NCBI RefSeq assembly: GCF_002571385.2
Contig: NW_019217960.1
Span: 381,199-441,784, forward strand
Length of the DNA stretch: 60,586 nucleotides
Source: Stylophora pistillata
Taxonomy: Eukaryota
Direction of reading: 5' to 3'
The notes beneath the pieces were generated by a model, which worked only from the letters and a program-made list of their open reading frames with translations, ran no database searches and was not told the origin of the DNA. The position numbers and the translations under genes are program-made. Position 1 is the stretch's first letter; every line of letters starts with the position of its first letter. Shown piece after piece: positions 599-26,700 of the stretch.

Positions 599-664
599 AT
601 ATTTGCAGGGAAATGAAGTTGTCTTTCTGCCCACGTTTCCCAAATTGAACAATCTTGATACTCT
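599..664 (+). CDS. mega-TSP exon: LRR ([22 protein letters not shown])
   Basis: ttttag|...|gtaagt, phase 2-2, LRR pattern. Confidence 0.8.
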
Positions 665-3600
665 GTAAGTATCACACAGTGTAGTGATATCTCCTGAACA
701 GCAGTGGTGTTGTTGTAGTTTTAGGTAAACGAAGATCAAACCTGTTATGAGGATCTAAAAAATTCCCACCATTAGTTTTATCTGATGAATTTTTTTCTTC
801 GCCAAGTAGTGTCATAAGTAATGTTAGTTTTTGTTACTCCAATAAAAGTTTGTGCTTCGGCTGATTTTTCGTTTATTTATTTGTTTTTAGCAACCTAGGG
901 AATAACCGGATAGAGAATCTTGGTCAAGACTGTTTTGGTGGACTCCCAAAGCTAGGAACTTTGTAAGTAGCCATTTAAGATACAACTGAGTACAGTTACA
1001 ATAGTGCACTGACATGCCCATACTTGGCTGCTTAATCTCGAGATAATTTCTGAAACTTGTGAGGTGATGAGAATATGAAAAGGCTCAGGTTAAAAAAAAT
1101 TCCCGATAAATGATCGAAAACTGTTACATTTACTATGAAATCTTATTTCAATTTTCTTTTAATGTCCAAATTTCGCGAAGATTTATATTTAAAAACATGA
1201 CCCATCACTTTCACTGAGATATGTATCGTGTGCACACTATGACTTTTATTTGTTTTGCAGACATCTTAATAACAACAATTTCGCTTGCGACTGCAACGTC
1301 TATAACTCCATTGTCGCTGTCATAAATGCCCTTTCTCAGAGTAGGGCTGCGACTTGCGCTTCTCCATCTCGTGTAGCTGCTGTAGAATTTTATCCTGGAG
1401 GATCTTATGAACTACAACCTGTTCAGGATTTCACATGCTGTACGTATTATATTATTTTCCTTCATTTACTTTATCCAAGACCTCTGTCCATAATCTATAC
1501 GCTTAAACAGTTTTATTAATGTTTAAAAATGCATGATCGGAAGCGTGCAGTTGATTATTTAACTTTTCTCTCTCTTCCCTCTAGCACCGGTGAATATTAC
1601 TGCAACAGCCCCGGGAGATTTCCAGCTGAGAGTGGACTGGTCACGACCCTCCTCACTTTATCCGCCACTCATAGTTGATAAAAACACTACTTATACGGAT
1701 ACGTGGAGTATTACGACTGTAAATGTCCTCAGGTTTACTTAACTTGTAGATACAACTAGTTGAAGATGTTTTTCTAAAAAGAATGGAGTAAGAGCTTTAC
1801 TGTTAAACTTAGTTAAGATGTATCCTTCTGGAACAGGAAAGGGGGGCTTCATGGTTATGATAATTTGTTCTGTTCAAAAACACCAGAAAATCAGGTTTTC
1901 CCCTAAACCTGAAAATTCCATAAGTTTTAAAATTGTATTATCCTCGCTTATTGGTGACTGTTAGTCAAAGAAAAATGAAATTAAACCCACAATTAGCTAT
2001 AATTGAACACACTTATTCCAGAAAAAAAAAAGAATTAGCAAAAAATTGACAAAGTGTCTGGCTTTGCAGTTCTTTCTTCCTCTCTCTGTTGATATTAAAC
2101 TCTTAGATTGTCACCTGCCTTAACACTGTTGTCACTGCTATTATCACCCTTGTCATGGTTATTACCTCATAATTATGTACGAGGCGGTGGGCTGGTATAT
2201 AGCACTCTCCTCCAAATGGAGAGGTCCTGGTGCAAGCCCTGGCAGGGTCATTCTTGTGCTATAAACTTTGCTCTAGTGGTGCTTCGCTGTGCCGAAGTGA
2301 GAGGCATAACTACCGACGAACTGTCTTGGAAATATGATGAAATGGTGGAAGTTATTTGGCTCAAGAGGTTTCCCTTGGACCTTTGACAAGTACTCTTGAT
2401 GTTGCTTAGACATCGTACCATGTTTAATATCAAAGCGCTTTTCATACTATTCGATTTTGTTTATCATAGGTCATAAGTGTGGGGTACAACTCAACGTGCG
2501 ACAGCGCAGACGCTCCGTCACTCTTTGGCTCCACACAAAGCGAGTTTATCTTGTTTGTTCAAGCCGATGGTGTCCAAGCAGGGATTGACTATGTGTGCTA
2601 CGTAACCATGACAGTAACAGCCTATAATGGGACAAACCAAGATAACAGTACTCAAGGCGAAATTGAAACTCAGACCTCCCCTAAAAGTGAGGAAGCAACT
2701 GTTACTACATTAGAAGGAAAAGGTAAGTATACGCTTGGAAGGGTGTCGCAATGAATATTATTCCCTCCTCCACGTTTTGCCTAAATTTTATCGAGAGAGA
2801 AATTCAAGACCTGAGATCTTCTACAGACCTCCTCCGAAAGAAAACGGTTGCAAAGTTATTCTTATGCTCAAGACATTTCGGGTATCGGTATTGATGTTAT
2901 ACTAATTGCACGTGTTTTCCGAACTTTGCGCTCACCTGAAATCTCCGAAAATTGGAGCAGAAGAAGAAAAAATGTCCTCAAGCTTTTATCGCATCCAAAT
3001 CTCAGTGCCTGAGGCTGTCCAAAAAGTTGTTTTCATGATATGCTGATGCGCTTGTGGGGCCAAATAGGAATAATTTCTTAGTTCCAGTATTTTGAGATTT
3101 GTTGTGGGAGTGTTTAATAAAAGTTTGCAGTATAAGATTTTTTAAATTTTACTAAAGCAAGAAAAAAAAGGCACTTGAAAGATCCTTGATGAAGAATGAC
3201 GACAAAAGCAGCAAAAAGCTCTCAAAATATTAATGAATAATCATTTTCCCGGATACCCAGGCCTGTCCTGAAACAAAGCTCAATGCAAGGCCTTCGATAC
3301 AGAAATCAACTCTTACCCTCTCTGGCCTCAGTTTCACAGTGAGACTATCAAGAACTCGCAAATGACCTTTTCTTTTAAAATTTAAGTGAGCGTTCAACTC
3401 ACTGATGTTTTTGTTTTCTTTCAATCAGCTCCTGTGACCAATGTATCGCTAAACAGTTCCAGTTACTACTTGGACATTATTTATTACGATTTCCAGTAAG
3501 TTGATGTGATTCATGACAATACTTAGAAGGGCGGATCGCGACTGACCTTGCCATTTCTTTGTAATATTTTCATCGTTTGGAATGCTTTTTGTTATGACAA

Positions 3601-6600
3601 TTCTCCATTAGTATATACGCCATCGTTAGTCAAAATGTATAGAAGAGATGGTTGTTTGAGTAATAAGATATTCAGTTTAATGGCATTAAGGTGTCAGACC
3701 ACTGAGAAGAAACTGTTCCACATTGCCTCGTAGTAATATGTAATTTTATTATACTCAAATGTGGTGTGGTGATCACAGATTGAAGTACCTCAGACGCTAT
3801 AACTTTACTTTGACCCCGCTTAGCTGTAGTCGCGTTTGCTATTTTGGTTACTTTGAGGGCTCTAAACTTGAATGTTATTTTGAGAAAAGTTGTCTTTTCA
3901 AAATATCAGTCAAACAAACAAACAAACTAGAATGATTTCCGTACTTTTAATGAAATTATCCTTAACTGGCTTTTTGTTACCTCGTTTTCTAATAGGAGCA
4001 CTTCAAGACCTCTAAGGGTTTGATATTTGTTGCAATTTTCATGTGGGTAACATCTGTAAAATTTTGTTCAGGTCTTCCCATGTTGATTTCACTGGTCTTG
4101 GTGCATTCAGAGGTGATCTGTATCGAAATCCCCAATATGTTCAGAGCCCTTATGGCAGCTGGTTGTCCATATCAAGCAGCCCTACCTCTGATAGTTTCTC
4201 TCAGTGGTTTAGACGTTTTTCCAGCCAGAACTATCATTATGAAGAGAAGTTCGAGCTAGGAAAACAGCTGGAGAGAGATGCAAATGGGAATACGGTGTTC
4301 CGGCATTACAACGACAAGTTCTTCCCAGTTGATGGCCGTGGATGGGGTGCAGAAGGACAGAGGGACTGCTATACTAATGCACTTAGGAACTATGGGTATG
4401 GATTTTTTTAGACTCAATTGCCTTTTGTTTGTCATTGGGTGTGTTTCTTAGCTATAAGACTACTGTCAGAATGAAATGCAAGGAATTGTGTCAAGTCTTT
4501 TTTACCTGCTATGTTCCTTTTTCAGCTTGCAGCTCACCTCGTTGACGTTTCTATTCCTATTGAAACCCATGGGCCTAATGACCTCAAAGAGACTTCAAGT
4601 CTTAGACGTTTAGTATGGGAGGAGACTAAAAGGGGGTGGAAGATATAGCAAACCTAATGGGATGTCTAGGATTCCCTAAAGATTGGAAACAACTGAGTAG
4701 ACATAGTAAATGTGTGACAATGAAATAAACAGAAGTATAGCGAATGCTACATGATTTAATTTCAATTTTTCAGTTTCACTGCTGCAATAAGTACCGGATT
4801 CAACTTTTCTGGTGATGAAATTTTTTCCTTCTCTGGCGGTGAAGAATTGTGGGTATTCATTGACAAGAAACTGGTGGTGCAGATATTTACTGATCCATCA
4901 GAAACGGATGTTCCATGTCGTTCTATAAGTTTAGCTGATGTTGGTACGACTCAAAGTTTGTGATACAGTTCACTCCTACTTAATTTGATACGATCTAAAA
5001 CGTTTGCAGATTCACTTTACCCCCGTCGAGAGGGGGTCTGGGGAATGTTACCAAGAGTGAGTGGGTGGGATTATGGGAGATCATAGAAATCATCATACCC
5101 TTGTCTGAAGAAAAGGTCATCATTAAGCCGTGAGAATAAGGCTAAAGATGGAGCGGAAAAGAACTAGCCTTTTTTTTTAAGTTGACACCATAGAGGTAGT
5201 TCTTAAATTAGCAAAGTAGAGTACCATTCATGAGAAAGGGGATGGGGAATGGGAGGGATGGTGCACGGACGCTGTTGTACCTTTAATTTCCACCTGTGTT
5301 GTGTTTAATGTACACGCTTTACGGACCTGTTTTACATTTTGCTGTTTTGTTTTCAATTAAACCACTGGGCTATGCTTTCTGGAAGTCAAACAGTGGCACT
5401 CGGGTTTCACTTTCTCTTGCATAAAAATGACCCGTGGATTGGCAAAATCTTTATAAAAACGAAAATGAAAATGTATTTATTTATGATGCAGTCGAAATCC
5501 AGCCACGTTATATTAGAAACTCGATATAGGTGAGTTTTAACCATGTCTTACAAAAGTTAACTTACAGTGACATCTCATATTGTAGTATGTGTTACAAGTT
5601 TGTTTTACTGATCTTGCAGCTTCGACTGAGTCTGTTATTCCTCAAAATGGAACAGTAATCGGAGGAAAATGCCAAGTCACAGGGGCTTTACAAGCAGAGA
5701 AAGTTAGCTTATCTCTTAAGGTAATAACTTCATTGAGAAATGTTGTGATCTGAGTTTGGAATTCCCTTTTCTGTTCTTTTCATACTTTATTTGTAGTGTT
5801 CTTGTGCGATCTATACTACTTCTTTCAGGCTCTGATGTTCTGTTTTGGTCCAGTTCAGTCTGGTTTAGTCTTTTATAGTCTATTCTTGTCAAATCTAGAG
5901 TAGACGAGTCCCATCTAGTCATGCCAGTATAGTATAGCCTGATTTGGTTTGTCTCGTTATAACTGGACCATTAGACTAGTCTAGTCAATTTCTAGTCTAG
6001 ATTATTTCATCCCAATCGGTTCTAGTCAAGTAAGGACTAAACTTATCCAGTCTGATCTAGACTTGTTTAGCCCAGCCTCTTTTCGTTCGGTTTGTTTAAG
6101 AGAACCAATCAGGTCGATCTTTGGCAGTGAAGGTTAGGCAGGTTACGCATGTTTGGGTTTTGTCTTCTAAAGATTAGTCTGGTTATGGCTGGTTTGGTCT
6201 GTTCTGTTCTTATTTGCCTTAAGTTGGTGTGGTCAGATCCGTTTTGGTCTGATTTGATCCATTTTGTTTGCAGTTCTCACTTTCGCCGGTCTGATTTAAT
6301 CTGGTTTAGTCTGTTCTTGATTATATAATCCCTGTTCTTGATTATACAATTCCTCTTCTTGATTATACAATCCCTGTTCTTGATTATACAATCTCTGTTC
6401 TTGATTATACAATCCCTGTTCTTGATTATACAATCCCTGTTCTTGATTATACAATCCCTCTTCTTGATTATACAATCCCTCTTCTTGATTATACAATCCC
6501 TGTTTAGACGTCTAATTCTGTCTGGTGTTACTTAAAGTTACTCTAGTGCGGACAATTCGGTTTCTTCATGAAATAGCAAGGCGGGTGAAGTTTGGCGTAC

Positions 6601-9600
6601 AATTAGGGATGTAGCGAAGGGTAAACGACAATACAATCATAAGAATGTTGAGATGAAGCCACTGACCACGATTTCACCTCCTATTTTTGAATGATCTAAT
6701 TTAATTTAGGTGAGAGTAGTTTAGTTTATCAGTTTCTTTCAAAACAAACCTTCATTCTAACTCTTAGCGTTTTATTGCCGTTCCCTGAAGGTGAATGAAC
6801 CATACCGTTTGGATGTATTCGTCGCTGAGAGATTCCTATGCAACTCACACATTTTATTCCAGTCAAGTGGCGCTTCATTCCTTCCACCTCTTGACTATGT
6901 GGCTACTGTCAGTGAGAACGCACATGTTGGCGTTATTGTGCAGGTGAAATGTTTGTTTTCTTGTTTCTACCCAACCATACGAAGAAATATTAAGAAAAGG
7001 GTGTCTCTTACAGACTCTGATATGAGTTAGGGGTTGGTCAGTCTTCGACTTTAGTTTTATCATTGTTATTTGTGTTAACTATCAACTTAAAAACAAACTT
7101 TGGGAACTCCTATCGTTTCAAACTTGTGTACTTCATACCGCAAAGCGACTTCGAACTTATTCGGAATACTGTCGGCGATAAGTCGAAACTCACTGATAAT
7201 CGAGTGGTTTATCTCCTCAAAGACGTCGTAAACACTGAAACACATCATCAACACTGGTGTAAGCTGCGCGAATAACTTCGTGTGACACGATTTTCTATCT
7301 AACACATATATATTGTCGTTCACTCACTGATTTCTTCGCATCTGGTCTAGAACGTTCATATTGGAGACGCTTTCTCGTCTGGGCCTTACAACGTCGACAT
7401 TTTGGAAGGAAATGAGCAAGACCGATTCGAAATTAAAAATGGGGCCTACGCAGCACCATCTGCACCCACCACTCCTTCTCCGCCCACTTTTATCCTTGAC
7501 GGAGAGTCAATTGTGTTGTGTCCCAATGCTACTGATGATCGAGTACTTCCAATACCTTCAGTTAATTCAGGTAAGAAGCAATGATAAAACCAGGTCTGTT
7601 TCAAGACGTGCTTAATGTGTGTGGACCAAGTTAACGTTATATTTCAGACAGGGTGACTCGTGATGTGTGCACCAACATTAGCACTGGCATTGGAAATTAA
7701 TTGTAATTGGGAGCAATATCCTTTTAGGTTTAAACTTTTACTTTTGCAAACCGACTGAGGATAACAATCATAATATCAAGTCTGAAAGTATCGAAGAGAA
7801 ACTTTGTAGAAAACAGTATTCTGGGCTTCATTTTGAATCTGTTTCCTTCTCGTATCAGTCATAACAGATAGGTTTCGTGTACCATTTTTATACTAAACAG
7901 ACAAAATGTGCTGCTCGACTCTAAGGCATGTTTTGTTACATGAAACTCATATTTATCTCTTTCACTTTGACTCCCCAGGAATTCAGTCATTCACCTCCAT
8001 TGCCACATCTATAGCTAAACTAACGCTGAAAGAGCCTTTGGATTTTGAGTACACCTCATATTATCTGTTATACCTAAGGATAACCGATACTGTTAAAGGA
8101 TGGACAGGCAACATTTCAATCAAAGTAAGTTATTAGTTTTTTTTCGTTTTCGTGGTAGTTGTAAGAAGAGCTTGTAGCTAATGGTCATTCCCTAGATACA
8201 TGTAATCCCCACCTTTCCCCCTCTTTCTTACGTCACTAACTCGCCTCGCAACTACAAACATTTTAATGCACACAAAAAATTGCTTTCGACTGAAATCTTT
8301 GGAAAAAATCTTAGCATTTATTTTACGATGATAGTTTTATAACTTTACGATGATAATTAAAACAGATAAAGGAGAAGAAGTGAAAAGGAAGGGGATGAAA
8401 TGTCATCCCTGGAAGTATTATACCAAGATCTTTGTGCTAAATGAAGTGGGAGGTTAACACATGCAAATTTTTGTGAAGGTTGTGATATTTTATCCTTTCT
8501 GGTCCCACCCGCGTGCAATACAATAATTTCTAAAATGATCAACTGTTTGGTTTGGATCCCTGGTATTTTGTGCTTCTGTAGGTTGTTGTTGAAGACTACA
8601 ATGATCACTGTCCATTTTTGAAAGAAGTCAACATAGATTTAGACCTGGAGCCAATCCCACCACTTCGCAAAGAAGCGTTCTTCACGGCTGTAGCCACTGA
8701 TAAAGACAGCGGTGTGAACGCTCGGATCACATACAACGTTAGCGAACCAGAGAGAATGTGCGTAAAGTGCAGCATAGATAAATAGATCATTTATATAGTC
8801 ATATCAGACTAGTTTTAATCTCTAAAGAAAAGCTTATGCTGAGGTCGCTACGAAGTCCAGGCTGCCTCATCATGATTTTCAGGTGTTAAAATTCGTAAAG
8901 GTATAGAAAAGTGATAAATTCTCCTTGGAAATTAATTTCATTGAAGAGTAAAGTTAAGCCACATGGCGTGTCGTTAGATATGATCACTTGTTGCCACAGT
9001 GATTCGTCGAGGATTGTAAATTAAAGCAGGGAGGTGTCCTTCAACAATATTATTGCAAATATGTCTTTCATGGTGCTTCCAAGTTAGCTTTTATATTTTT
9101 TCTTGTACCATTGTTGAGATAGGTAATTGTTCCATGGTTTATTGTAGTTATAGTGGTGTGCAGCGACCAGGAGCATATATAATCCGTCTGGACGAGANNN
9201 NNNNNNNNNNNNNNNNNNNNNNNNNNNNNNNNNNNNNNNNNNNNNNNNNNNNNNNNNNNNNNNNNNNNNNNNNNNNNNNNNNNNNNNNNNNNNNNNNNNN
9301 NNNNNNNNNNNNNNNNNNNNNNNNNNNNNNNNNNNNNNNNNNNNNNNNNNNNNNNNNNNNNNNNNNNNNNNNNNNNNNNNNNNNNNNNNNNNNNNNNNNN
9401 NNNNNNNNNNNNNNNNNNNNNNNNNNNNNNNNNNNNNNNNNNNNNNNNNNNNNNNNNNNNNNNNNNNNNNNNNNNNNNNNNNNNNNNNNNNNNNNNNNNN
9501 NNNNNNNNNNNNNNNNNNNNNNNNNNNNNNNNNNNNNNNNNNNNNNNNNNNNNNNNNNNNNNNNNNNNNNNNNNNNNNNNNNNNNNNNNNNNNNNNNNNN

Positions 9601-12600
9601 NNNNNNNNNNNNNNNNNNNNNNNNNNNNNNNNNNNNNNNNNNNNNNNNNNNNNNNNNNNNNNNNNNNNNNNNNNNNNNNNNNNNNNNNNNNNNNNNNNNN
9701 NNNNNNNNNNNNNNNNNNNNNNNNNNNNNNNNNNNNNNNNNNNNNNNNNNNNNNNNNNNNNNNNNNNNNNTCCTCTTTTCATTTTCCTCATATTTTTTTC
9801 TATTCTATACCTAAAATATTGTCGTATTTAATAGTCCGCACATCAACGCCACGAAGTTTTATGTCAATAATGGTACTGAGGTGGTGTGGAGCAATAAGAC
9901 TGTGAAATGGACCTACAAATACTTCGTATTTGCTGTGGATGGAGGTTCACCAAAACGCGGTGATGGTATCCCTTTGAATATCACATTTGATGCTACTTGC
10001 GAAGTGACGGGGGCTGTTGTAGCTGATCCAGGTACTGGTGAGGTGTTCTTTAGAGCGCCTGGGCTTACAGGATCTGAATACCGTAAGTACCTCATAAGAA
10101 GCGTACACTATTTAACAATTGTTCTATCAGTACGCGTCGGATATTAAATGCTAAATGGCCACAACTATCATATCCTAAAACTGGTGCTTTTGCTTTTGTT
10201 GTAATTTGGACTCTAATCATCCAAATCCGCTTCGAACATTGCAAATAAACACTTTGTTTAATCTGCAAAAAAAAGAGTGGATGTGTGATCCATGGTATAT
10301 AAGCTCAAATGGCTCATTCTGAAGACCATTCAAAGAGCAGGATTGGCTAAGTTTTAAGGTCAACTGTTTTCCGTAAGAAAGAAATGCAGGCTCAGTGTAT
10401 TGCCTATCTTGCCAATGAGCTCTCTGTAGCTGATTTGGTAGGATATTATACAATTAGCATGGCCCTAAAAGAAGGTTGGCAAAAACTTTCTTTTGCTCCT
10501 CTTCAAACCTACATTGCCACCGAATTTTCAGCGAACTAAAGAATGAAAGATATGTTTTTTAAACTGAATCTTGCAGTATTGTGGTAACCACAATATTTCT
10601 ATTCAACCTCTAGCTTTAAACTCCACCGAAAAGCCGAGATGTCGCGGGTGCACTCATGGATATTTCTGTGTTGGAGATGGAACTGAAGAGCGATGTGGAC
10701 TCGCTTCACCAACAGAATTCTCCTTTGGTTCCGCAGCGACATGTTCACCTTGTCCCGAGGGATGGGTAAGTGGATGTAGTGTGCTTATTTCTAGGAAAGA
10801 GTGGGAGTGTTTTGAAGTTTTTTCACTAGCCTGTACCGACCGAAACCTTTGATTTTTGGAATGTTTATTTAATCTTAAAAGCACCCTCGAATCCCCACGT
10901 GTCCCAATAGGTTGTGTTTCGATAAGCGAGAGCACCAAGCGTTACATTACCTGTGCATTCTATTTTCAGCTCTGTGTGAATGGTACCGCGCTCCCTTGTC
11001 CAGAGAGTACACATGTCAAGTGCAATTCAACGGTGGGTGTCCTACAAAATATTCTTTCCACAGAATCATTATTGCAACGACAGTGGTTGGCATTAAAACA
11101 GACAAACTAAGCAGGGTCAAATGTGCCCGGGAACATCGAACCCGATGAGTATTTCGTTGAATTTCTAGTGGTAAGCGCAGCAGCGGATTTTTTATCGTAC
11201 TGACCTCAGAATTGAGCTCCAGCTTGACCGGTTTCGTTGTATCCTGTTCTTGAGCAAGATACTTTACTTTCAATTAGTGTGTCTGTGACCCTAAAAAGAA
11301 ATATCATTAAATAAGCACCATATGCATGACATGTCACGGAAACCGGGAAATAACTCCAACATAACCTGGCAAGTGAGTCATTAAACTACCAGATGCCACT
11401 TTGCAATAAATTTCGACTCCGTCCGGAAGCTTCTACTTAGTTTGGAGAACAGATTTTAGCTTTTGATTAACGATATTTCTCTTGTCTTGCTAGTGGTGCC
11501 CCGAGAATTGCTTTGACTGTGAACCTGGTACAGTTTGCTTTGAGGGAAGGAAGCACGACTGCACACCAGGACGATACAGCGATGGAAAAGGTTGGTTCGA
11601 AGTTTGGCGGTTGTTGTCGATGAGAGCTCACAATCATGATATGAAAATAGCTTTGCAGATTTTGCAGACATCAACCAGCACTACACTAAAAACACGCACG
11701 CGTCTTTCAATATGAATAAGCCTAGAATTGAGAGTACCAGTTCGTTACTAATCATATTCAAGTCCAATTGATTCACGATATGTATTATTTAGGACTTAAA
11801 CGAGAGCTGTGTGTGAAGTTTCTCTAAGCGAACTAAGAAAATCTGCTCGCAATGATAATTTACACTCTGCTGGAACGAATTTTCGTTTCTTTTCTCAGGC
11901 TTCCCATGTACGCTTTGTCCTCCGGGTAGCTTTAATAACGTGTCTCGTGCACAAACCTGTGAGTGTTGCCAGGATGGTTACACCAGCACATACATGAAGA
12001 CCAGTTGTCGGCAATGTCCTGCCAATGAATGGGCAAAGCACGGAAGTTTCCCGAACTGTTCCATGTGTCAGACTTGTTTTAATCCTGAGGACTGTGAGTA
12101 TGAATCTCTATATTTGCTTATTCACTGGGTGTTGTCCTGCTATTTTCTTAAGTGATAACATGATATCTCTGACCTATGGCGATGGATCTGCATCCAAGTT
12201 ACGTATATCTCAGTACAAACGGCAAAGCGCAAAAGGGTTCCTATAATTATTCCTTAAAAGGCGATTTCGAACTTTGTCTAATGGTAAACGAGACCAATAC
12301 ACAATGTTAACGAATTTTCTCGTAAAAAAATGCTAAAAAAAAAATGAGTCGCTTCCTCACTTCTTTACCAGAAAACTAAATTTGGGCTCCTTTTCATATT
12401 TAAGAGGTTTTTGAGAACCTTTGGTCATAGAGGGACAAGTTTTTCTGCCATTCTTAATAAATGTGTTCTAGAGCTTATCAAATTTCGCGATTCACTTGTT
12501 CGCTCTTTATAATTTATTCAATAATATTGCCTTTAGCTTAGTCACGTTTTGTTACTTTGCTTTGTTTAAGTTTCTCTCCAAGAATGAGTTTGTAAAATAA

Positions 12601-24600: not shown

Positions 24601-26700
24601 AGTCACTCACTCTATCTGTAAATCAGTCTATAAGTCTAAGCTTTTCAAATACGCTGATTTATGAATAATTGCATTGGACGCCATCAGAAGGATGAATTGA
24701 CAGGATAATGTCTTTTAAGTTATATTATGCTTCTTTAGGAGGAAGCTGACGGTCGACTCACCTATAAGAAGCGAAACTTAGTTTTTTCAAAATTTTAGCA
24801 TGAAATAATTCTTGACAAAATTCACTCTTTTCTCATTTTCAGCCTACCAACTTGAACTTTTTGTAAACGGTTCATCCGTTGGATCAAAGAGTGATGTATT
24901 GCCTCACACCTGGGTAGGTCTCTTTGTAACGTTTGGTTACCTCTAAAGTTCTTTAAAGTAACTCAATATAAAACGAAGGCAAGACTCTTGTTTTTATAGC
25001 TCGAACGAGAGATTGCCGGACTGCAGCGTACAACAATAGACTTCCAGCCTCAGACCCTACCGACTCTCAGGAGTGACTAGCATCTAGTTTCCTTCATGAT
25101 ATCACCCCTGAATCACTCATTAAGGTCACGAGAATAAAGGAAATGATCACAAGCTAAAGAAGCACGTGATTGTCAACTGAAGCAAATTCTTCCTCTTCAG
25201 CCCTCAGGAAATGAATAGGGAACAGTATGGAGAATATGCATACCGATGTTAGAGTGAAAAGGGTTAAAGAATGAACACACTCTTGCAAAATGTCGGGCTC
25301 TTCCATCCCGGTTGGGTAGGGTATGCTCAAAGAAATTAGCCTAAAAAATTTGGGAAAAACTTGAAAAAACGCAGACAGGAAATTAAATTTATGCATAAAT
25401 TCCCACCTTTGGCCTCCTTCACCTCTCTGTAACTTGGAGAAAGTTGAAATTGTATTTCCTATTTTTCTAGTGGTCTTTTAGTGACCTTCTTTTGTTTTTC
25501 TATTTCTCTTTTAGTCGTCTCGTGACCTTCTTTATGTGGGCCGTGACAACAGTAATTACTTGAAAGGAACTGTGGATGACGTAAGTTTGTTTAGTCCTGA
25601 GGTTGCTTTTGTTTTCATTTACCCTCTGAGTTTTCGGAGAACATTTTTCATTGTCAATGAATAGTTACTTTCAATGAAGAGGACTGTGCAACTTCTTGAC
25701 TGCTGTTATAAGAGCCAATTCTCAAAGTTATTCAAACAGGGTAGTCAGTGCGCAGGAGTTGTCGTAAATATTCAAGTAGGAGAACTTGCTCTTACTTTAT
25801 AACAGTCGATATCCAGTCGTTTCGAACCACGGTTGTTTCGTACCCAGTCAATTCGTATTCAAATTCAAGAGAATCAAGTAGGAATCAAATATATTCGGCC
25901 ACCATTATGATATATGACCCCGTTTGATTGTTTAGCAGCCCCTCTCGACACTGGATTTGAATGCATTACCATGCTTAATCAAACTTTGCCTTGTAATATT
26001 TCACCTCATAAGCAGTTTGATCGTCTAGCTAGCGTGTGTTGTGTGCGACAAACACGATTCTGAACAGAAATATTCCAAGTTTAGGTGGGGCTCAAGCAAT
26101 AACAGTTTCTTTATAAACTTGCCCCCTTTATTTACTTTGTACAGTTGACTCTGTGGGGGGTGTATGTCGAAGACGCGGATATTGTTAATTACATGAAAAC
26201 TGCCGGCCTGTCGTTACCCATCCACAAGGGTGTGGTCAGAGCACATTTCAGTATGGACGAGACTTCTGATTCAATCATTCTTGATCAAGCGGGAAATGGT
26301 TACCATGGAAATCTAATTGGCGGAACAAGTTTCGTCGCGGTGAGTAACGTGTTTGATGGTTCGTGATCTGCTATAATTAGGAAATGCTCCTGTGAAATGA
26401 CTAGTCTTAGGAACCCTTTGAGCAACTTGGGTGTGGCATATTTTGAAGGATATGGGTCTCGCAAATCTTGGGTCCTCGAAACCCAGGGTATCCTGCATTA
26501 TGAAATATGATATTAAATAGGTTGTTGCTCATGTTGTTCGACTTAAAACTGATATTCACGTAATGGAAAAAGTACTGTTTATTTGTTTTGTTTCATAGAG
26601 CTCTGTCGACAAGAACCGTTTTGTACTAACATTCCCAAACAATAAGAGGAGGAGACGAAGAAGTGTAAATACGCCCTGGTCGCAACACAATGAACTCTAG
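599..26700 (+). CDS. Mega-thrombospondin-like secreted protein (5'-partial; 41 coding exons in window, ~1838 aa): LRR, LRRCT, FN3, fibro-slime/PA14, 2 cadherin, GCC2/3-like Cys repeats, 4 EGF, TSP type-3 repeats, TSP C-terminal L-lectin, LamG, furin site + HNEL
   Basis: Hand-spliced exons with GT-AG ends and matching phases; summed length 5518 nt stays in frame to TAG at 26698-26700. Diagnostic motifs: [17 protein letters not shown]...DxDxDGxGDAC repeats, VDFSG...[18 protein letters not shown]. Confidence 0.9.
891..962 (+). CDS. mega-TSP exon: LRR ([24 protein letters not shown])
   Basis: Classic 72-bp phase 2-2 LRR exon, ttttag|...|gtaagt. Confidence 0.85.
1261..1439 (+). CDS. mega-TSP exon: LRRCT cap ([11 protein letters not shown]...C..P...C)
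   Basis: tgcag|...|gtacgt; NxFxCDC motif. Confidence 0.85.
1585..1718 (+). CDS. mega-TSP exon: FN3-like, N-half ([21 protein letters not shown])
   Basis: ctag|...|gtaaat; donor chosen by phase. Confidence 0.75.
2470..2722 (+). CDS. mega-TSP exon: FN3-like, C-half (..[16 protein letters not shown]..)
   Basis: catag|...|gtaagt, open frame. Confidence 0.8.
3429..3495 (+). CDS. mega-TSP exon: start of fibro-slime/PA14 (..LDIIYYDFQ)
   Basis: tcag|...|gtaagt, phase 1-2. Confidence 0.75.
4072..4395 (+). CDS. mega-TSP exon: fibro-slime/PA14 ([24 protein letters not shown])
   Basis: ttcag|...|gtatgg; motifs match the fibro-slime/psi-factor family. Confidence 0.85.
4774..4943 (+). CDS. mega-TSP exon: fibro-slime core ([25 protein letters not shown])
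   Basis: ttcag|...|gtacga. Confidence 0.85.
5620..5720 (+). CDS. mega-TSP exon: insertion within fibro-slime domain
   Basis: tgcag|...|gtaata, phase 1-0 fits neighbours. Confidence 0.75.
6311..6504. repeat. 21-bp minisatellite (TTCTTGATTATACAATCCCTG) x9
   Basis: Direct inspection. Confidence 0.95.
6791..6943 (+). CDS. mega-TSP exon: end of fibro-slime ([10 protein letters not shown]) and start of cadherin 1 ([12 protein letters not shown])
   Basis: gaag|...|gtgaaa. Confidence 0.85.
7351..7570 (+). CDS. mega-TSP exon: cadherin 1 (GNEQDRFEI) with Pro/Thr insert
   Basis: ctag|...|gtaaga. Confidence 0.8.
7979..8124 (+). CDS. mega-TSP exon: cadherin 1 ([19 protein letters not shown])
   Basis: cccag|...|gtaagt; LDxE motif. 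Confidence 0.85.
8582..8757 (+). CDS. mega-TSP exon: cadherin linker/cadherin 2 ([23 protein letters not shown])
   Basis: gtag|...|gtgcgt; DxNDxxP and AxDxDxG motifs. Confidence 0.85.
9198..9770. other. Assembly gap (573 N)
   Basis: N run. Confidence 1.
9835..10082 (+). CDS. mega-TSP exon: cadherin 2 end ([13 protein letters not shown]..)
   Basis: atag|...|gtaagt; phase 2 matches the preceding exon. Confidence 0.8.
10614..10765 (+). CDS. mega-TSP exon: Cys-rich GCC2/3-like repeat
   Basis: ctag|...|gtaagt; CxxGxFC..CxPCPxGW. Confidence 0.85.
10970..11032 (+). CDS. mega-TSP exon: Cys-rich ([21 protein letters not shown])
   Basis: ttcag|...|gtgggt. Confidence 0.75.
11494..11590 (+). CDS. mega-TSP exon: Cys-rich ([32 protein letters not shown])
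   Basis: gctag|...|gttggt; restores phase; absent from the ORF track. Confidence 0.8.
11899..12093 (+). CDS. mega-TSP exon: ephrin-receptor-like/GCC Cys repeat ([19 protein letters not shown])
   Basis: ctcag|...|gtgagt. Confidence 0.85.
12671..12801 (+). CDS. mega-TSP exon: EGF 1 ([27 protein letters not shown])
   Basis: ttag|...|gtagga; TSP-type EGF. Confidence 0.9.
13313..13528 (+). CDS. mega-TSP exon: EGF 2-3 ([14 protein letters not shown])
   Basis: acag|...|gtgagt. Confidence 0.9.
13989..14138 (+). CDS. mega-TSP exon: EGF 3-4
   Basis: acag|...|gtatgg; [15 protein letters not shown]. Confidence 0.9.
14705..14809 (+). CDS. mega-TSP exon: EGF 4 end / first type-3 repeat ([12 protein letters not shown])
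   Basis: ttag|...|gtaagt. Confidence 0.9.
14891..14995 (+). mobile_element. LINE 3'-end fragment with (TTA)n tail
   Basis: Shares CCTGTAAACTAGCT..TAAG..TTT..CCAC.TTAAA with the LINE 3'UTR at 40311-40353. Confidence 0.55.
15283..15390 (+). CDS. mega-TSP exon: TSP type-3 repeat
   Basis: gcag|[17 protein letters not shown]..|gtaagt. Confidence 0.9.
15625..16072. repeat. Older degenerate palindromic hammerhead-bearing repeat, host of the above insertion
   Basis: gactgacgtttggacg.. inverted against ctctgatgatgac..tcgagacgtcagtc. Confidence 0.5.
15733..15975 (+). mobile_element. Penelope-like palindromic insertion with 13-bp direct repeat ACTCTGATGATGA (15720-15732 / 15976-15988); hammerhead variant at 15827-15860
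   Basis: Near-identical to the 1-479 family; inverted 5' part; flanking direct repeat. Confidence 0.75.
16167..16329 (+). CDS. mega-TSP exon: TSP type-3 repeats
   Basis: ccag|[23 protein letters not shown]..|gtaaga. Confidence 0.9.
16886..16998 (+). CDS. mega-TSP exon: TSP type-3 repeats
   Basis: gtag|..[23 protein letters not shown]..|gtacgt. Confidence 0.9.
17489..17544 (+). CDS. mega-TSP exon: degenerate type-3 repeat ([19 protein letters not shown])
   Basis: gtag|...|gtgagt, phase 0-2. Confidence 0.8.
17571..18272. mobile_element. MITE/fold-back element with ~200-bp terminal inverted repeats
   Basis: GGTTACCGTGCACCTTCAGGGG.. at 17571 inverted against ..CCCCTGAAGGTGCACGGTAACC at 18272; no clean TSD. 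Confidence 0.8.
19487..19572 (+). CDS. mega-TSP exon: TSP type-3 repeat
   Basis: ttcag|[12 protein letters not shown]..|gtacat. Confidence 0.9.
19802..19915 (+). CDS. mega-TSP exon: TSP type-3 repeat
   Basis: atag|[14 protein letters not shown]..|gtaaac. Confidence 0.88.
20245..20420 (+). CDS. mega-TSP exon: last type-3 repeat / start of L-lectin
   Basis: gtag|..[18 protein letters not shown]..|gtatgt. Confidence 0.88.
20805..20862 (+). CDS. mega-TSP exon: TSP C-terminal domain ([20 protein letters not shown])
   Basis: ccag|...|gtttgt. Confidence 0.8.
21483..21673 (+). CDS. mega-TSP exon: TSP C-terminal L-lectin ([18 protein letters not shown])
   Basis: gtag|...|gtaaaa. Confidence 0.9.
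21746..21820 (+). CDS. mega-TSP exon: L-lectin ([14 protein letters not shown])
   Basis: acag|...|gtgagt. Confidence 0.9.
21909..22006 (+). CDS. mega-TSP exon: L-lectin ([17 protein letters not shown])
   Basis: tcag|...|gtaaca. Confidence 0.9.
22221..22364 (+). CDS. mega-TSP exon: L-lectin end (GGRLG..Q..VIWS.L..RC)
   Basis: ttcag|...|gttagt; frame stays open past the usual TSP C-terminus. Confidence 0.9.
22466..22842 (+). mobile_element. tRNA-derived SINE
   Basis: A-box-like TAACTCAATTGG and B-box GGTTCGAGCCC head, unrelated body, (TAAAT)n tail. Confidence 0.75.
23072..23283 (+). mobile_element. 5'-truncated Penelope-like copy with 13-bp TSD TCTTAAATAAGCA (23059-23071 / 23284-23296)
   Basis: Matches 270-479; hammerhead copy has a GTC>GAC change. 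Confidence 0.75.
23550..23630 (+). CDS. mega-TSP exon: LamG/ConA-like start ([11 protein letters not shown])
   Basis: gtag|...|gtgctt. Confidence 0.85.
23878..23982 (+). CDS. mega-TSP exon: LamG (FTISTWV)
   Basis: tgcag|...|gtatga. Confidence 0.85.
24076..24173 (+). CDS. mega-TSP exon: LamG (WHHLAYRYD)
   Basis: ctcag|...|gtaaga. Confidence 0.85.
24328..24420. repeat. (CACT/CAGT)n microsatellite
   Basis: Direct inspection; degenerate CAGT/CAAT flanks 24225-24630. Confidence 0.9.
24843..24913 (+). CDS. mega-TSP exon: LamG (LELFVNG)
   Basis: ttcag|...|gtaggt. Confidence 0.85.
25052..25267. mobile_element. Degenerate MITE ending ..AAAGGGTTAA
   Basis: Resembles an abundant coral TTAACCC..GGGTTAA short element (from memory); left TIR decayed. 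Confidence 0.45.
25515..25580 (+). CDS. mega-TSP exon: LamG ([13 protein letters not shown])
   Basis: tttag|...|gtaagt. Confidence 0.85.
26145..26339 (+). CDS. mega-TSP exon: LamG end ([18 protein letters not shown])
   Basis: acag|...|gtgagt. Confidence 0.85.
26599..26700 (+). CDS. mega-TSP terminal exon: [33 protein letters not shown]
   Basis: catag| phase 0, TAG at 26698-26700. Confidence 0.8.
   Translation, partial: SSVDKNRFVLTFPNNKRRRRRSVNTPWSQHNEL

Follow-up and report, generated by a model that had tools for sequence, protein, structure and literature searches.

Whether an animal extracellular matrix (ECM) protein carries a lectin-like domain of the fibro-slime type known from microbes, and what has become of the calcium site of this domain, is the question raised by a locus of Stylophora pistillata. 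The window, i.e. the whole stretch of DNA that was analysed, comprises 60,586 nucleotides (NCBI RefSeq assembly GCF_002571385.2, contig NW_019217960.1, positions 381,199 to 441,784 of the forward strand). An initial annotation, made from the letters alone, had read a fibro-slime (PA14-like) domain across five exons at 3429-6865, with the motif GDDD rewritten to GGEE, DLGGxH lost and a Cys-containing insert of about 30 residues, and had proposed an ancient or horizontally acquired lectin module. We find a fibro-slime-type PA14 domain in a mega-thrombospondin (mega-TSP), inherited vertically within animals, in which the Asp motif is rewritten and which is likely no longer a calcium-dependent lectin.

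A fibro-slime-type domain in a mega-thrombospondin

The complete motif series was recovered at the claimed positions of the + strand (HVDF at 4079-4090, SFSQWF at 4193-4210, ten-residue motifs at 4319-4348 and 6803-6832, and NYGFT across the 4395/4774 exon junction), and the five domain exons are linked by GT..AG junctions. Four RNA runs were used, two as contigs and two as raw reads. Over 2400-9100, they set the exons from 2470-2722 through 8582-8757 that are listed in Table 1. All eight GT..AG joints are present in the contigs of both contig runs, and each of the four joints within the domain was also seen among raw reads, in one of the two runs used in this form. The first mates map to the - strand, as a stranded library would give for transcription from the + strand. 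Across 536 codons, the joined reading frame has no stop, and no variants are listed for 4823-4879 in the RNA runs covering this region. A pseudogene or a chance series of motifs is ruled out, the domain being spliced, open in frame and expressed; contamination from a symbiont or bacterium is ruled out by the GT-AG introns within an animal gene.

The host protein is a mega-TSP as defined by Shoemark et al. 2019 (PMC6526912), whose text gives the order leucine-rich repeats (LRRs), central cadherin region, EGF/TSP3/TSP-C and second ConA domain, proposes a role in the mesoglea and reports that mega-TSP is needed for head regeneration in Hydra, which knockdown blocks. Full-length coral mega-TSPs map exon by exon and in order over the window, from the LRRs to the second LamG domain (tblastn), with matches covering residues 195-2807 of a 2810-residue homologue; residues 195-638 of the LRR region match upstream of the window and the LRR cap matches 1274-1438. 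The same genome holds a paralogous mega-TSP (C526:54011-69263, + strand, loci L002-L005) with a second fibro-slime match, which is 54% identical over the compared region, reads GGEE and has its domain exon breaks placed alike.

Profile searches and predicted fold

Homology to fibro-slime domains extends over the whole domain (W-Y/F, FFPxD, NYxFT, WVFI, AER). The spliced window domain scored 112.9 bits (E 5.8e-34) with a profile of 26 single-domain non-animal fibro-slime proteins, which had been picked after GDDD was seen in them; the best of 500 shuffled sequences reached 7.3 bits. Profile-profile alignment (HHalign) gave a probability of 99.9% and aligned GGEE to GDDD and QIFTDP to DLGGVH. 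The family model TIGR02148 matched the GGEE exon alone (E 4.6e-9, 36.6 bits, under the 45-bit cut-off) and none of the other four domain exons taken singly. Among 13 mega-TSP homologues, three passed this cut-off (49.7, 49.5 and 45.6 bits), nine scored 31.9-41.6 bits and that of the calcareous sponge Sycon gave no match. PF07691, the Pfam model of PA14, was weak on the window exon (E 0.051, 13.8 bits, below the 24-bit threshold), and six of six bilaterian mega-TSPs had no match at E 0.1. Sequence searches of the PDB remained at chance level, with two matches, to CD59, for the animal profile (E 0.14-0.16) and ten, none of them PA14, for the non-animal profile (E 0.043 or worse).

The domain is predicted to adopt the PA14 beta-sandwich. 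A model of the Acropora cervicornis domain, computed from 44 sequences, has a predicted local distance difference test score (pLDDT) of 92 and a predicted template modelling score (pTM) of 0.91. Foldseek places fungal and bacterial PA14 lectins first, with Cea1A on top (E 1.4e-4) and fungal PA14 adhesins throughout ranks 1-8. The top three chains of VIA-align are all PA14 domains, namely Cea1A, an RTX-adhesin PA14 and RsgI PA14 (Z 9.1, 8.7 and 8.6; root-mean-square deviation 3.2-3.5; 126-146 aligned), and only these three of 48,161 chains reach Z >= 8. A control model of a bacterial-type protein with intact motif matched the same PA14 set with similar E-values. PA14 domains thus lead both lists. 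Significant matches to fibro-slime/PA14, whose absence would have refuted the initial reading, are therefore present, and the assignment of a fibro-slime/PA14 domain to an animal ECM protein stands. The ESM Atlas returned only bacterial or unrecorded PA14-type clusters (0.88-0.91), from which no taxonomic range is drawn, and a homodimer prediction of the domain (score 0.00, alignment not used) was counted neither way.

Distribution across mega-thrombospondins

When the TSP C-terminal region of an annelid mega-TSP alone served as query, 1808 matches were obtained, and 50 of the best 120 were classed as mega-TSPs from their Pfam lists. All 50 carry the fibro-slime domain, and PF07691 is present in none of their precomputed Pfam lists (0/50). 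The other 70 of the best 120 gave no domain match (best E 0.069). With the window protein and five sequences found through the domain itself, the 50 form a set of 56, every one of which matches the non-animal profile at E < 1e-3. Named carriers are corals, an anemone, an octocoral, Clytia, Sanderia, annelids, a nemertean, molluscs, echinoderms, hemichordates, amphioxus and Sycon, whose domain has E 2e-14 with the non-animal profile and 1.9e-17 with an animal profile from which Sycon had been excluded. Mega-TSPs of ctenophores, placozoans, Hydra and Nematostella were the target of a further homologue search, which yielded 18 proteins and no new animal taxa.

Mean pairwise identity in 43 mega-TSPs, calculated with approximate boundaries, is 41.8% for the PA14 domain, compared with 31.3% for FN3, 37.9% for cadherin 1, 37.1% for LamG and 39.1% for the LRRs; TSP-C (48.0%) and TSP3 (55%) are more conserved. 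As its identity exceeds the 31-39% of its neighbours, the domain is not decaying.

Motif states and register of the Asp pair

When eight partial gene models and Sycon are set aside, 47 full eumetazoan domains remain. Neither GDDD nor DLGGxH occurs in any of them (0/47 each). The first Asp position holds Gly in 46 domains and Ala in one, and the second position is acidic throughout (Glu 26, Asp 21). All 14 cnidarian-type rows read GGEE, and the 33 bilaterian rows are distributed over GGDE (13), GGEE (8), GGDD (5), GGEA (3) and GADE, GGDG, GGDA and GGED (1 each). The rewriting of the Asp pair is therefore not limited to corals, but is common to the eumetazoan mega-TSPs retrieved. The Glu of AER is kept in 46/47, and the His that follows ER in 72/96 non-animal domains is replaced in eumetazoan mega-TSPs.

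The best 150 of 2083 profile matches at E 0.001 comprise 11 named mega-TSPs and 139 others. Among these 139, 93 proteins contain 111 domains with an Asp-rich motif (GDDD 105, SDDD 4, ADDD 1, GTDD 1), a frequency biased by a search pattern that demanded the Asp motif; DLGGxH or a close form is present in 109 of the 111. The 46 proteins without a pattern match include 18 that show GG[DE]x as in mega-TSP fragments and one with SADD.

The Asp-cis-Asp pair of PA14 lectins most likely corresponds to the first two Asp of GDDD, since the strand breaks in both models and the spacing in canonical domains agree. In the A. cervicornis model, strands 136-141 and 144-149 are separated by a break of two residues, Gly142-Glu143; strand order is the same in the model of the intact-motif protein, where Asp174-Asp175 separate strands 168-173 and 176-181 in the same way. 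Canonical PA14 domains of the S. pistillata genome have S-D-D at equal spacing from the flanking hydrophobic residues. This genome has at least 24 PF07691 matches (loci L012-L023), many in long single open frames, and the Asp pair is missing in five of the 12 canonical matches printed out of 24. Loss of the pair is thus common among PA14 domains.

In Sycon, the motif is replaced by N-T-D-L-E, so that Leu stands at the second position, while DLGGLH is retained, as are all four Cys described below. We infer that eumetazoans lost the first Asp and Sycon the second, in separate losses from an ancestor with an intact site. The contrast between sponge and eumetazoans illustrates on a small scale how a lectin site is lost step by step.

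Cysteines and the hairpin insert

The Cys-containing insert had been assigned an exon of its own. It does fill exon 5620-5720 and is, in the model, an added hairpin following the strand found in place of DLGGxH. Of its two Cys, however, this exon holds one (5670); the partner (4916) is in the preceding exon. A second Cys pair, absent from the initial annotation, is at 4367/6839. All four Cys are present in 45/47 eumetazoan domains, and the other two domains, from acroporid paralogues (P0220 of Acropora palmata and P0225 of Montipora capricornis), are without both outer Cys. Because the outer two are lost together in these paralogues, the pattern suggests disulfides 4367/6839 and 4916/5670.

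Five proteins that are not mega-TSPs (P0050, P0062, P0064, P0096, P0134) have intact GDDD and DLGGxH together with the same Cys-pair insert, whose first Cys is four residues past the His exactly as in Sycon. Two of them contain EGF domains; from these and from signal/membrane segments we would guess that the five are eukaryotic. Named cyanobacterial proteins have inserts without Cys at this loop. Animals therefore did not invent the insert, and the loop is a general insertion site. Gain of an animal-specific exon was rejected as an explanation of the insert, since the Cys pair is divided between two exons and also occurs in proteins other than mega-TSPs. The intron following the insert exon contains a 21-bp tandem repeat (6290-6525).

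Phylogeny and origin

The larger tree was built from 60 of 104 domains, 14 rows being animal and 46 non-animal, over 131 columns, from which motif, Cys and insert columns had been removed. Eumetazoan copies form one clade (support 98/98), which splits into cnidarians (99/92) and bilaterians (98/86), and the Cys-insert group is recovered with 98/84. Sycon has a long branch without placement; constraining it with the eumetazoans gave a likelihood 4.04 higher and p-AU 0.617 (approximately unbiased, AU, test). A smaller tree of 41 rows without Sycon supports animals with 99/97 and the Cys-insert group with 77/84. Animals and the Cys-insert group were joined with SH 88 in a quick tree, where two other rows were included, and not in the careful tree; the AU test neither rejects nor demonstrates this union (p 0.451).

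The domain is inherited vertically within animals. A recent horizontal transfer from bacteria into corals or cnidarians is highly improbable, even if the nearest non-animal matches are mostly bacterial or without organism name and no choanoflagellate or other holozoan homologue was found among 30 proteins looked up by name. The domain occurs at the same place of the same gene in annelids, molluscs, a nemertean, echinoderms, hemichordates, amphioxus and a sponge, its tree mirrors the split between cnidarians and bilaterians, and its four introns are placed alike in the C526 paralogue. Of the proposal that the module is ancient or horizontally acquired, the first half is thus upheld, whereas recent transfer does not fit a domain carried by 50/50 mega-TSPs. 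The deeper source may have been a protist ancestor or an ancient transfer into stem animals.

Function of the domain

PA14 lectins hold sugar via Ca2+ bound by Asp-cis-Asp and calcium-binding loop 2 (CBL2). PA14B of C. thermocellum has Asn-Gly as its pair, a crystal without Ca2+ and no binding of pectin; the pair tolerates conservative changes such as Asp to Asn according to the same report, but with Asn-Gly the binding of Ca2+ is abolished (PMC6852018). Six Komagataella paralogues without the motif are apparently devoid of lectin function (PMC6218569), and anthrax PA14 is without the Ca site (PMC3325183). In the mega-TSP domain, too, loss of the pair most likely abolishes the C-type mechanism. 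Fibrobacter fibro-slime proteins are linked to cellulose adhesion by a mechanism that is not known (PMC4668043), so we infer the ancestral fibro-slime chemistry, too.

The reading that we favour, with a confidence about evenly balanced between yes and no, is that of a disulfide-braced, calcium-independent binding module with a retained surface. Gly-Glu would take the place that Asp-Asp has in the bacterial model, in the strand break of two residues. The canonical Ca2+/sugar site would be lost, the two putative disulfides (4916-5670 and 4367-6839) would brace the domain, and the invariant acid together with the Glu-Arg pair would still form a binding surface. Its partner would probably be a protein or a matrix polymer in the mesoglea. 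A retained surface is favoured because the domain is as conserved as its neighbours or more so, and because the acid of the break is present in every eumetazoan domain. The same residues could also belong to a remodelled calcium-dependent lectin, in which the kept Asp/Glu, the next acid and a downstream Glu coordinate Ca2+ and the Gly admits a different glycan. This is possible but doubtful: acids at the second position in 47/47, at the third in 42/47 and the downstream Glu in 46/47 would suit it, as would a CBL2 Glu proposed as Ca ligand in the TraA PA14 model (PMC3325183) and the fact that the top fold matches are lectins, but the first Asp and the His of DLGGxH are gone in 47/47, the His after ER is replaced, Sycon has Leu at the second position, and the tolerance limits cited above speak against it. 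Between the two, we hold a role without Ca to be the likelier one. We regard as unlikely a ligand-free spacer between FN3 and cadherin, in which conserved residues hold the fold only. Many invariant positions are indeed Gly, Trp, Phe, Cys and Pro, the pair is missing in the five canonical domains mentioned above, and the window domain has Ser at 4790-4792, with no variant listed in the covering RNA runs, where the other 46/47 have Arg; a mere spacer, however, would not be expected to be more conserved than its FN3, cadherin and LamG flanks or to keep an acid in an exposed strand break in 47/47 domains.

Several points weigh against the favoured binding module. The frequencies of the three acids make a remodelled metal site possible. 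The PDB copy searched has no structure of the fibro-slime subfamily, and Ca2+ binding by GDDD is taken over from PA14 homology. The modelled sequence is a coral homologue and not the spliced domain of the window, and Foldseek TM-scores to PA14 lectins are low (0.26-0.35). HHalign of ten canonical coral PA14 domains with the fibro-slime and mega-TSP profiles was not significant (probability < 5%), and the register therefore rests on spacing and models. The Sycon state comes from one species with a long branch.

A wider scenario, which we consider quite improbable, would have the first animals build mega-TSP around an intact microbial-type Ca-lectin, of the adhesion or social-recognition kind of Fibrobacter, myxobacteria and amoebae, taken from the non-animal Cys-insert subfamily. 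Sponges and eumetazoans would have disabled the calcium site independently by losing different Asp, and the eumetazoan Gly-Gly-acid site would have become a novel and conserved receptor-binding surface required for the role of mega-TSP in regeneration.

Relation to known systems

The domain shares its motif series over about 190 aligned positions, and its strand order in the models, with fibro-slime domains (TIGR02148) of Fibrobacter and of the amoebozoans Difflugia and Acytostelium, but differs from them in GG[DE][DE] for GDDD, the loss of DLGGxH and of the His after ER, two Cys pairs and an animal ECM host. The PA14 C-type lectins (Cea1A/Epa/Flo5, MpPA14, RsgI PA14) are the best structural matches of the coral model; the mega-TSP domain differs from these by the missing Asp-Asp pair, 6-15% identity and large insertions. 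Its motif state is nearer to C. thermocellum PA14B and KpFlo4, both without the pair (PMC6852018, PMC6218569). A possible functional analogy is offered by myxobacterial TraA and by Dictyostelium PsiA/DicA1, extracellular PA14-type modules in cell-cell recognition or signalling (PMC3325183); TraA keeps Asp183-Asp184 and is calcium-stimulated, and the mega-TSP domain is without the pair.

The mega-TSPs of PMC6526912 have the same architecture as the window protein. The text of that paper names PA14 once, in the Hydra member only and without subfamily or motif analysis, while its figures and supplements may show more; one supplement of 3,438 characters contains no mention of PA14. The main text of a 2025 Nematostella matrisome paper has neither "PA14" nor "mega" (PMC12549020). 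The fibro-slime papers listed all concern microbes, judged by title, and among the papers found for mega-TSP only PMC6526912 uses the term. In a search that left subscription papers outside, no report of family-wide presence, fibro-slime assignment or motif change in mega-TSP was found. Our data extend a known family and do not define a new system, as mega-TSP has been described before, one of its members had already been credited with PA14, and there are known PA14 domains that lack the Asp pair. New here is that a fibro-slime-type domain with a rewritten Asp pair, missed by Pfam, is family-wide in the mega-TSPs retrieved. It fills a central block of 240 residues, so far unannotated, in a matrix protein that is among the oldest of animals, and defines residues for mutation (the retained acid, Glu-Arg and the two Cys pairs).

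Gene structure and other features of the window

The exons of the domain and the other parts of the gene are listed in Table 1.

Table 1. Coordinates of the domain exons and of the remaining mega-TSP regions in the window
Feature	Position	Strand	Evidence and remarks
Domain exon 1: first strand, YDF 3485-3493, domain start ~3464	3429..3495	+	RNA junctions, translation
Domain exon 2: N-terminal half of domain, Cys 4367-4369	4072..4395	+	RNA junctions, translation, homologues
Domain exon 3: GGEE, segment replacing DLGGxH 4880-4897, first insert Cys 4916-4918	4774..4943	+	TIGR02148 E 4.6e-9, translation, profile alignment
GGEE where GDDD is expected: first Asp to Gly 4838-4840, second to Glu 4841-4843	4835..4846	+	putative register (two models, spacing relative to canonical PA14)
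Domain exon 4: beta-hairpin insert, second insert Cys 5670-5672	5620..5720	+	RNA junctions, model strands 181-200
Domain exon 5: last domain strands, conserved Glu-Arg 6827-6832, Cys 6839-6841, domain end ~6871, then start of cadherin 1	6791..6943	+	RNA junctions, translation
Last LRR exons and Cys-rich LRR cap	600..1437	+	translation by eye, tblastn; LRR region extends at least 24.7 kb upstream of the window
FN3-like domain (exons 1585-1718, 2470-2722)	1585..2722	+	junction; Pfam fn3 weak on homologues (E 0.13; E 0.003)
Cadherin domains (exons 7351-7570, 7979-8124, 8582-8757, 9835-10082)	7351..10082	+	RNA, homologue mapping, Pfam Cadherin on homologues (E 2.7e-8, 1.8e-9)
Ephrin-receptor-like Cys-rich region and EGF domains	10598..14809	+	exon mapping, Pfam on homologues
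Thrombospondin type 3 repeats and TSP C-terminal domain	15277..22368	+	exon mapping, Pfam on homologues
Second ConA/LamG domain and basic C-terminal tail, stop 26698-26700	23473..26700	+	tblastn, Pfam on homologues

An assembly gap of Ns lies at 9198-9770. RNA contigs join 8757 to sequence matching 9835, and no coding exon seems to be lost in the gap. Directly behind an EGF/TSP3 exon, a 93% copy of part of it (14713-14787) is found in the intron at 14820-14894. The intronic sequence at 1-479 is a near-perfect hairpin with 230-nt arms that are 99% complementary and a 19-nt loop; shorter palindromic relatives lie in other introns (15731-15948 and 23070-23254), and by appearance the hairpin and its relatives resemble miniature inverted-repeat transposable elements.

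No tRNA genes were found in the window. The adjacent gene lies on the opposite strand (~32660-49437, -) and shows YWTD-like, sushi-like and HYR-like exons, the open reading frames (ORFs) having been assigned by eye. Reverse-transcriptase-like fragments and a THAP-like zinc-finger ORF, likewise identified by eye, are located at 38517-39077 (+), 59556-60062 and 58269-58700 (+).

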